A stretch of 64,000 nucleotides of DNA, taken from the NCBI RefSeq assembly GCF_036588685.1, contig NC_086373.1, forward strand, positions 4,774,001 through 4,838,000, given 5' to 3'. The position numbers and the translations under genes were made by a program. The DNA comes from Mytilus trossulus (lineage: Eukaryota). Of this stretch, positions 50,329 through 54,274 are shown in pieces. The notes below the pieces were generated by a model. It was not told the DNA's origin and did not search any database. It saw only the letters and a program-made list of their open reading frames with translations. Every line of letters begins with the position of its first letter. Position 1 is the first letter of the stretch.

Positions 50329-52219
50329 TTTGCGGCTTTGGTTGTTGAACGATGTGTGCGAATGAACGACAGATTACAATGATATGCAAAAATCACCGAC
50401 AGTGTGTAATTATCAAACTAACGCGGACCTCGACGAGAGCACCCTTAAACTTTCATGACAATCTAATTCAAACAGATCGACAAGAAAATCTGTGTGCTTG
50501 TTCGACAAGTTTTAATCATTTGTTTCAAATAAATTGTACTTTTTGTTATATAAATGATACACGAAAATTTTCAGCAGGAATTTATCTTTCAGAATATGTC
50601 ATAAGAATTAAACAAAATACCACGAGTGAAGAAATATTTACGATTAATGTACAACTTGTCAATTTCACTCGTGCGATTCTTCATCAGAAAACGTGTTGTA
50701 TTATTTCACAAAAACTAGATTGTGCCGTAAAAATGATATAAATTTGTAGTAAAATCATTTCTTTATATGTTTTTGCTTTCAGATATACACAGAAATAAAG
50801 AGACTTCCCAGAAATTTAGATTTTGCCTTCGATATGAAAGCACACAAAGATGGCAAACTTCGAAACCGGGACTTCCTTGACCGAGATGAAAGACGTTTCA
50901 AATATTCGAAGTTTTTACTGGAACTTTACAAACTATAATTATTATTTATTGTTTATTATTTGTTTTTGCTATAATGAATTTTTGCTAATTAGAATCCTTT
51001 CAGAAAAAATGTGAATCATATAAGCCCTGGTCAAAAAGAAAGAGGCGATTTCAAATGACGACAAATGGCGGATACCATATTATCACAGACGACCTTTCAA
51101 AGACCTAATTTAAAAATATATATATAGCCACATGCATGTGTAAGGAGTGGAATTCTTAAGTGTATATAACTTGACGTGCATGTATTTCACTTAAAAATAT
51201 TTCAACATGCAGATGGGTATTGAAAACTAAATAAATTTATGAATGATTTATTTTCTGTTTTCTTCATTGATAGCTAAATACATTGAATATTACCACAGTG
51301 TAGATACTATTCTGTACGCTATCCGGAAGTCGCGATTTTCGAAGCGAGGATTTCAAACTGGCTAACAGAACGGTTTTGTTTTGGGTGCTTTTTCTCATCA
51401 TTTGTTTACTCCTATATCTATAAAGTGCTTTGCACATCTTAAATGTATGTACAACATCATAAATATCAGTAACTGTAACAAAAACATGCAGTAGAATATA
51501 AAATATACGCGTGCATCACACCAACTTCATAGAAAAAAGTGAAATCGATTTACAATTTTGCTCTCGTAGTACAAAGCAAATAATCTTTTATTGCAAATAT
51601 TTGCATCAGTTTACAGTAAAATATATACTGTTTCAATATTCCTACCGTATTTAAGTAGAATGTTCGTATTTCAAATAAAAAATATGTTTTCATTGAGGAT
51701 CCCAAAATAAATTACTGTACGATCAGTCTAAAACTGACTGTATTCTAGTAGCGATTTCAGATTTTTTGTCTGTATGACCAGTCGTGATTTTGAAGAAAAA
51801 AACAACAACAAATGGAAGTTTTTAACGACCTTGACTGAAAAACAACGGCAATTTGAAGGTATATACGTGTCTATGTGATATAATTTATGATTATGTCCAT
51901 GGAACTATAACGTGTAATCTCTTACAAATATATTTCTGATGATTTTTGTAGACGGCAAAATAATTATATTTTTGTTTCGTCAGTCTTACTTAAAATCAAA
52001 TGCCTATAAAGCAATACATGATTCGCTTGTGGACTTTGTATTAGTGTGTCGTTGCAGTTATCTGTTTAACTATTACATTTTTAAGACTATTTACACCGTC
52101 TACCGTTGACCAATTGGTGATTACATACATCAAGCATGTCTCTTTTAAAATGACAAAAAATAGATAGAGAAAGCTTTGTTTAAAACCTTTAGGTATTGAG
52201 GAAAGAATTAAAGAAATAA

Positions 52220-52810
52220 TACCCCGCCACTTCTATAGTCCATGTTTTGGAAAAAAATAAACCACCAGAAAAACTAAATTATAGGTACACAGGGGCATCA
52301 TTTAATAACGAATATGAGAAAGTTTATACTTTTATTAATACTAGTACTAGTATATGGTAAGTTTTTGAAAGTTGCGTATAGTAAGCGGGTACCACCCAAT
52401 AAGGTAGTGGAAAAGTCCATATCATGGAAATAAAAAACTTATGATTTTTCGAAAAACCAAAATAAGAGGTACACAATTGAATTAAATGATAAGGAATCTG
52501 AAAAATATTCATTAATTTATGACAAGTGTCTTAAGGAAGTTGTGGATATAAAATAGGTACGCCCAATATGAGGTTATGACAAAGTCCGTATTTTAGATAG
52601 AGAAACATCAAAAATATTTTTACAAAAAATTCGAAATAAAAGGTCCATAGTACATTAATAGATTAAAAATGGAGCGATTTTAGAAAAGTTTAACAATTCG
52701 TTTTGGAGGTCACAGTTGGAAATACCTGATGGGTGCCCCCATATAATGCAATGTTCAAGTCCGTATCTTATATAAAGAAACCCCTTAAAATATTTTTAAC
52801 AAAATAAGAA
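52220..52810 (+). repeat. Degenerate tandem repeat of about 175 bp, 3-4 units
   Basis: AGTCC anchors at 52237, 52414, 52583, 52758 and AGGT[A/C]CA anchors with similar spacing. Confidence 0.5.
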
Positions 52811-52831
52811 ATATATCCCTTTTTTTTATAT

Positions 52832-53028
52832 AAATAAGGCCGTTAATTTTCTCGTTTGAATTGTTTTACATTGTCATTTCGGGGCTTTTTATAGCCGACT
52901 TTGTGGTATTGGCTTTGCTTATTGTTGAAGGCCATACGGTGGCCTATATTTGTTAATAGCTGTGTCATTATGATCTCTTGTGGACGGTTGACTCATTGGC
53001 AATCATACCGCATCTTCTTTTTTATATT
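52832..53028. repeat. Nested short interspersed repeat resembling an abundant mussel element
   Basis: ...ctcattggcaatcataccgcatcttcttttttatat end and gaaggccatacggtggcctata core recognised from memory; related fragment near 53405-53432. Confidence 0.5.
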
Positions 53029-54274
53029 ATAATTTATGATACGGAATCCAAGTAAAAAATAATTAATAGTTATACCAGTGACGGATTCAAGAAAATTGGG
53101 ATCCGGCGGTTTGAAACTCTTTTTTAACTTTCAATGCATTTGTATGGGAACATATATTTGGAATCCTCTTTTCTCCTGGATTGGACCCCCTCTCCATTTA
53201 AAAATGTCTGGAAACCCCAATGTATATTAAATGGTTTATGAGGAGATGCGCTTGCAAAACCGGCGAAACATGTTGTTCCAGTCCAACGGACGAACGGAAA
53301 GACGGACATCATTATCACTATAAACCATCGCTTTACAAAGTGGTGTACAATTGAGTGTGAAAGAGACAGATCTACATCCAAAAACAAAGTGAAGGAACTG
53401 TGATCAATTATAGGCTACAGTACGGCCTCGAATGTTTGTAAATTCATGCATTTTTATATAGTAACAATTAAATCTGTGTGTTTATTCAATTTTAAGTATA
53501 ACGGATGACATTCCTGAAACTTCTATAAACAAACAAATTTTAACCTTCTTCTTATTTCAGCCACATTCAAACATCCTTATACTTAATGTAGTAAGTCGAG
53601 TACACCCTATCAAGCTAAAACATGTTTGAAAAGTTTACAGGATGTGCATTTATTAAAATATATTTGTGTTATTTAGAAAAATGACATCTTCTAATGTATC
53701 GTAAATAACTTTGAAATCACTACTAGAATACAGTGAAATAAAGACTGATCATACAGTTTCAAAATATACAAGCTCGACTGATCGTACAGTGAGAAATTCA
53801 AACAAGTGTAATTTTCTTATTTCTGGCTTCAACGATCTGGCTGAAACTTTTACCACCACTTAAAATATACTCTATTTAGTAAATTAAGTCTGGATTTTAC
53901 GTTAATTTGTACAGTAAGAGTGCAAAAAGATTGTATTTAGGTTCACCAACTGATTTTCCTTAGTGATGCACTTGGAAATCTCTTAATTAAGGCAAAGATA
54001 CGAATAATGAATGTGCTAAATTTAATTATAAACCATTTGTGAATATCGATGTCAGCTGAATTAATCATTAAGCAATGTACAGATGCACATCTTACCGTTT
54101 AATATAGTATATCCGACAAATTTGAAATGTGATCCAAAACGTTCTCGCTTCGAAAATCGCGACTTCCGGAAAGCGTACAGAATAGTATCTACACTGTGAT
54201 TACATCCAAATAAATTAGTAAAAAAAATATTGAACCATTATGTTTGGTAGGAATACAAAATTATACGTAAAAAA

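Follow-up and report, generated by a model that had tools for sequence, protein, structure and literature searches.

Which enzyme carried a transposon whose ends resemble V(D)J recombination signals into a mussel histone H1/5S rRNA gene array, and how recently did it do so? The element in question is 2,905 bp long (51294-54198) and sits in one unit of the array. Its first seven bases, CACAGTG, occur once, at 51294, on the + strand of the window, by which we mean the whole 64,000-nucleotide stretch of Mytilus trossulus DNA analysed here; CACTGTG likewise occurs once, ending at 54198. An initial annotation of this DNA described a recently inserted transposon with perfect RSS heptamer ends and proposed that a Transib or RAG1-like transposase exists elsewhere in the genome.

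The window consists of a tandem array of 2,342-bp units, each carrying two 5S rRNA genes and one histone H1 gene, with 32 Rfam matches to 5S rRNA in the window. The H1 protein is 94% identical to M. coruscus H1 over its length and, in partial alignments, 97–99% identical to M. galloprovincialis and M. edulis H1, which identifies the host as a Mytilus mussel. On chromosome 1 of four Mytilus species, H1 genes are known to alternate with 5S genes (PMC4106214). The units at 37293-63619 (one H1 and two 5S genes each) are 99.7–100% identical, and those on the left (468-22608) differ from them by 1–4%, so that the array has a homogenised core and a diverged edge in which insertions are frequent. Three of the 5S copies have lower scores than the rest (111 versus 117 bits). 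The insertion site itself is in a spacer, 73 bp beyond the 3′ end of the 5S gene at 54276, and no gene is interrupted.

Other insertions are present in the same array. A LINE with endonuclease, reverse transcriptase and RNase H occupies three units (4240-11205, 13545-20254 and 22595-29002), in each case at the same site 52–64 bp upstream of the H1 start codon and with a 12–15 bp duplication; the third copy retains an unbroken 1,283-aa frame. In two units a second, 5′-truncated copy of ~310 bp, ~91% identical to the end of the long copy, lies in tandem at the same site, and since these truncated copies have a duplication of their own, at least two insertions took place at one site. The arrangement suggests that this LINE is specific for the H1 promoter/5′ region, and the three long copies could be a single event spread by unequal crossing-over. 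A second, unrelated LINE is found at 31409-36404, ~60–70 bp from the site of the first, with endonuclease, reverse transcriptase, an unbroken 1,177-aa frame, a 296-aa first frame and a short tetranucleotide tail. Finally, the first copy of the RNase-H-bearing LINE contains, at ~7633-7935, a miniature inverted-repeat element of ~300 bp with a TTA duplication and G-rich ends, which we take to be of the PIF/Harbinger type.

The boundaries of the element under study are sharp (Table 1). CACAGTG stands at both ends, the terminal inverted repeats (TIRs) extend over 55 bp with one mismatch, and the ATTAC target-site duplication (TSD) is perfect, all as initially annotated; the interval given there, 51289-54203, comprises the element plus both duplications. 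The TIR match (blastn E 4.5e-21) has its mismatch at position 28. Of 14 occurrences in the window of the 25 bp that precede the element on the left, 13 lead into an empty site (…GAAT ATTAC ATCC…) and one into the filled site. Removing the element and one ATTAC in silico restored a unit of 2,342 bp that is identical to the next one (0 differences); against six other units, the reconstructed sequence had 0 differences in four cases, 1 in one and 2 in one. The chance of a 5-mer repeat, calculated from the base frequencies of the window, is 0.002. The claim of a recent insertion is thus upheld by the repaired unit and by the 13 empty sites among 14 and, judged from the sequence, the insertion is recent relative to the last homogenisation of the array.

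Table 1. Coordinates of the element, its repeats and internal features, and the adjoining host DNA. L001 is a metagenome contig carrying a second copy.
Feature	Position	Strand	Remark
Host unit, left part: 5S genes 49024-49142 and 49286-49404, H1 gene (ATG at 50328)	49000..51288	-	outside the element
Left TSD copy, ATTAC, 5 bp	51289..51293	+	one ATTAC in the 13 empty sites of other units
Left TIR, 55 bp, begins CACAGTG, AA at positions 34-35	51294..51348	+	55/55 identical to the L001 end
Left inner block, CTGTAYGAYCAGTC twice and CTGTATTCTAGT once, mirrored near the right end	51714..51783	+	candidate second transposase-binding region
About three and a half decayed tandem units, 175-185 bp each	52235..52815		4 of 6 unit pairs exceed all 200 shuffles
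Nested 208-bp very high-copy host repeat	52820..53027		loose ends at 52820 and 53027; L001 runs into it
Decayed GTCC/GTCY-type microsatellite remnant	53286..53308	-	motif type as in oyster HINEs
Right inner block, inverted counterpart of the left block	53704..53789	-	conserved in L001
Right TIR, 55 bp, carries the position-28 mismatch	54144..54198	-	mismatch absent from the L001 right end
Right TSD copy, ATTAC	54199..54203	+	exact match to the left copy
Host spacer and next 5S gene (3′ end 54276)	54204..54394	-	outside the element

The annotated lack of a transposase also held. The longest stop-free frame in the element is 96 aa, and in all 12 frames read through with X (six from the window copy, six from L001) no Pfam family was found at E<=1. 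An Rfam search of the element returned a single sub-threshold chance match, and a tRNA search found none. Beyond the terminal repeats, an inner block is mirrored ~410–490 bp inside each end: the inverted match between the left and right blocks has a z of 5.5, a value reached by none of 300 dinucleotide shuffles, and the word CTGTACG is common to the blocks and the terminal repeat. We rejected a single long, degenerate inverted repeat of 500 bp, as significance is confined to the outer 55 bp and the inner block; in between, the z values are 1.4 and 2.1 (reached by 23 and 9 of 300 shuffles), and no inverted similarity was found beyond 500 bp from the ends. The idea that the inner blocks are the ends of a nested element was likewise rejected, no flanking duplication being visible by eye. 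Tandem units together with a GTCC-type microsatellite are the anatomy of bivalve HINEs (PMC7492417), and by this likeness of layout the corresponding features here are probably what remains of a HINE (Helentron-associated) element taken along as cargo. The nested 208-bp repeat reaches a summed depth ~100-fold over that of the rest of the element in one public run (X1), and it occupies the same place in other family members.

Is the element one of a kind? Part of it is present in 19 of 24 listed public runs, the best containing 0.54 of its words, and the runs with element sequence span six organism labels and two metagenome labels. In the four of these 24 runs that were aligned, the element is covered in 30, 30, 30 and 28 of 30 bins. 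Run X4 contains pieces ~95–98% identical along the element, and in runs X4 and X15 depth is greater over the ends than over the interior, the pattern that related elements with common ends would produce. Two of the four aligned runs (X1 and X4) contain the empty site, seen as a skip of 2,910 bp with five letters in common. In X1, X2 and X4, depth over the element and depth over the H1-5S array are of similar magnitude, a hint of many copies, although depth is not a copy count and we did not take summed depth as copy number. Loose ends, among those listed, fall at the nested repeat and at one inner spot only.

A second copy was found in the marine metagenome contig L001, where 1,254 bp of the right half lie in a different flank, 92.5% identical over 1,261 columns, with homology stopping exactly at the heptamer. 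The two copies differ at 84 of 1,249 aligned positions (6.7% substitutions), by which measure the family is older than this array insertion. The flank of this second copy (L001:1-1008) resembles another repeat, presumably with a Kolobok-like start after TTAA. L001, a genuine match, was the only one in a scan of metagenome contigs with the end sequence. The same scan of viral contigs gave 14 matches to a 16-mer, none of which extends, and 0 for the inner part of the end; prokaryote genomes gave two matches to a 19-mer, both in named bacteria, which we put down to chance, and phages and plasmids gave none. No long copy turned up in the metagenome, viral or prokaryote scans. Three degenerate motif scans of viral contigs for a Transib/RAG1 protein returned 0 each. 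In run X15, a contig of 932 letters shares with the element just the final 234 bp of the right end (~85%) and has ~100 other letters inside; it is likely, on this partial match, a related family with a different interior and a candidate route to an autonomous partner. Collectively, the sequences recovered indicate that the element belongs to a multi-copy family found across several related species, and the 13 empty sites, the lack of a coding remnant and the copies in other flanks bear out its description as a non-autonomous, recently inserted cut-and-paste element.

To which group does the mover belong? Transib elements make 5-bp duplications, start with a CACAATG-like heptamer and have five invariant end positions, CAC plus AA at 34-35 (PMC1131882). 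Both ends of our element show all five, the two A's at a spacer of 22 bp; for the AA by itself, the probability of a chance match is about 0.1. The duplication is also 5 bp long, as judged by ATTAC against 13 empty sites in one copy (L001 shows one side). CA..TG ends with duplications of 2–5 bp characterise the clade of EnSpm, Mirage, Chapaev and Transib (CMCT; PMC12730594), and the element has both; within that clade, 5 bp is the duplication length of Transib and RAG (PMC1131882). The initial annotation gave the perfect RSS heptamer too much weight, since CACAGTG opens many ordinary Transib ends; the labelled ones in the supplement of PMC9435367 number at least four (PbaTransib_0868, MplTransib_1482, a Hordeum contig and JsiTransib_2954). 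As had been noted, no A-rich nonamer is found at spacers 11–13 or 22–24, where the best match is 4/9; the block in question, CCGGAAGTC, agrees with either consensus at 4/9. Within the nonamer, only the AA is described as invariant in Transib (PMC1131882). Because both ends are alike, there is no 12/23 pair; symmetric ends do occur in subgroup II Transibs (PMC9435367).

Several observations speak against a Transib. ATTAC and the L001 flank AATAG (window orientation) are AT-rich, with one G/C in five each (two sites, that of L001 one-sided), whereas Transib and RAG prefer GC-rich targets (PMC1131882, PMC10629977); in a genome of ~32% G+C, however, two AT-rich sites prove little. An ORF-based mollusc survey that included M. 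edulis and M. coruscus reported one Transib among 14,275 DDE elements (PMC10294476). In the 12 of 33 supplement files of that study that were searched, Transib does not occur, and files 24 and 25, in the first ~400 letters per sequence, contain none of the element's end words. The Repbase rule allows at most one mismatch in the first 11 bases (PMC4455052); by eye we counted three to two Transib ends, three to a Chapaev3 end and six to oyster RAGL, and none of the published ends so compared satisfies the rule. Moreover, both the ends and the length of the duplication differ among Transibs and ought not to outweigh evidence from the transposase; CAC ends with a 5-bp TSD support a Transib or RAG-like assignment and do not, as the annotation had it, define one (bioRxiv 10.64898/2026.08.26.747230, 2026). 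What stands of the Transib assignment is that the ends and the 5-bp TSD fit Transib better than any other named group; it rests on the ends and one duplication. In the literature we found no description of this family, including by end sequence; Repbase and Dfam, outside the scope of that search, may list it. Taken together, the element is likely best filed under the Transib/CMC clade, as a non-autonomous, uncatalogued family. That it is a Transib is plausible but unproven, the element appearing to work like one, and this is probably an ordinary uncatalogued transposon family rather than a RAG system.

The main rival is a Chapaev-like or other CMC-branch transposase, from the sister group of Transib, with either a wider 5-bp duplication around a TWA core or a true duplication of 3–4 bp plus one extra terminal base; we regard this as unlikely, though a serious contender. 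CMC elements occur across molluscs, where Transib is rare (PMC10294476), CMCT lineages have the CA..TG ends and 2–5 bp duplications already mentioned (PMC12730594), and a bivalve Chapaev3 consensus opens with CACCGTGTA, the same as the element at eight of the first nine bases (PMC10294476 supplement file 24). Chapaev3 targets TWA (PMC3014272), and the three central bases of ATTAC are TTA. In both copies the base after the right end is an A, which would allow a 3- or 4-bp duplication plus an extra terminal base, there being one complete copy. However, in the Chapaev3 ends shown, the first bases lead into an AAC/AAAC run and TWA itself is duplicated, and the element has neither feature: the bases beside its ends are TAC and ATT, not a 3-bp TWA duplication adjoining CAC. 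The centre of the L001 flank is ATA rather than TWA, the 3-bp and 4-bp readings both require asymmetric ends, the former with a further two-base coincidence (about 0.05), and the AA at 34-35 typical of Transib is present.

The remaining explanations are minor. Descent from a two-gene RAGL transposon (ProtoRAG-type, RAG1L plus RAG2L) as a non-autonomous derivative, a possibility on which the annotation had put weight, seems improbable to us. The annotation was right that RAG-like transposons occur in molluscs, as published for bivalves (PMC7204232): RAGL pairs are present in the mussels Modiolus and Bathymodiolus, and pearl oyster has non-autonomous RAGL copies of 1.5–2.6 kb with 5-bp duplications. 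But mollusc RAGL ends, asymmetric in the oyster, read CACTATCAAAC, and the element matches the protostome end consensus CACTWMCAAACKTYKBB at 8 of 17 positions, with TAG in place of AAA at 8-10; RAGL duplications are GC-rich, all 17 paired ones in the table holding at least two G/C; and two M. galloprovincialis genome projects are on the screening list, with Mytilus not named as a carrier (PMC7204232). An unrelated cut-and-paste superfamily (hAT5, Ginger2 or an unclassified lineage), for which CACAGTG would be a coincidence, is improbable to the same degree. Ginger2 ends read TG..CA. hAT5, the other group with 5-bp duplications (PMC12730594), is present in bivalves, and hAT prefers AT-rich sites (PMC1131882), but the third base of hAT ends is described as always G (PMC1131882) and the bivalve hAT5 consensus starts with CAGG in all nine shown of 16 listed, against CACA here. 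Least probable by far is an assembly artefact, in which an unrelated repeat was joined into a collapsed tandem array. The units are nearly identical, and among the contigs listed from the aligned runs none spans the filled junction; against this stand the exact 5-bp duplication, the two intact ends and the same end in the independent contig L001.

The reading we favour, and hold to be reasonably probable, is that the element is a gene-less member of a multi-copy mussel family and was moved recently by a DDE transposase of the Transib type, a single-gene enzyme whose gene is predicted to lie elsewhere in the genome. A Transib-type enzyme is a cousin of RAG1, the antibody-gene recombinase. The predicted transposase would treat the two ends alike, binding CACAGTG and the AA site downstream of it at each, and the mirrored inner blocks may assist. 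The element would have been cut out of another locus by the nick-hairpin route, going by the chemistry of Transib and RAG (PMC10629977), and pasted into the array spacer with a 5-bp stagger, its interior, a decayed HINE-like relic plus a nested host repeat, probably travelling as passive cargo. More speculatively, and to our mind rather doubtfully, Mytilus may carry a still-active, undescribed branch of the Transib/RAG1 clade, with AT-rich 5-bp sites, two-part ends (the 55-bp outer repeat and an inner block ~450 bp in) and a large non-autonomous family, in a genus without reported RAGL or ordinary Transib.

If the partner is a Transib, the element gives access to a RAG1-related transposase that was active recently in mussels, a group in which an ORF survey recovered almost none; its AT-rich targets would also put to the test the idea that GC-rich target bending is a fixed trait of Transib and RAG. 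The 55-bp end is a ready probe for the partner transposase. As known now, this is one more non-autonomous transposon family; it has no bearing on whether molluscs rearrange genes in a V(D)J-like way, and bivalves were already known to carry RAG-like transposons.

The element shares its first seven bases with the V(D)J recombination signal and, at a spacer of 22 bp, also the two A's that are invariant in the nonamer. Unlike that signal, it has a nonamer agreeing at 4/9 and two ends alike, with no 12/23 pair; the CACAGTG ends here are transposon ends and not a mark of somatic gene rearrangement. The bivalve RAGL/ProtoRAG elements CviRAGL and PimRAGL are similar in their CAC start, 5-bp duplication, non-autonomous copies of similar size and bivalve host, but their ends carry AAA at 8-10, whereas our element has no such run, symmetric ends, AT-rich targets and no trace of RAG1L or RAG2L (PMC7204232). 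Chapaev3 resembles it in the CAC start, the near-identical first nine bases of CMC_M.nervosa_3 (eight in common) and an AT-rich target (PMC10294476 supplement file 24); unlike Chapaev3, the element has a duplication of 5 bp instead of 3-bp TWA, no AAC run after the first 8–9 bases, and ends of 55 bp compared with 11–19 bp in lizard Chapaev3 (PMC3014272).

The comparison with non-autonomous Transib elements (TransibN1-N3_AG, Hopper/Kodama) brings together the CAC heptamer, the AA at 34-35, the 5-bp duplication and the lack of a gene of their own (PMC1131882; bioRxiv 10.64898/2026.08.26.747230), and the heptamer CACAGTG itself is that of several Transib ends in the PMC9435367 supplement. Unlike these, the mussel element has AT-rich target sites (two seen) and no A-rich nonamer, mirrored inner blocks 410–490 bp from each end, an interior of captured repeats in place of a transposase remnant, and a host group in which Transib genes are nearly unreported.
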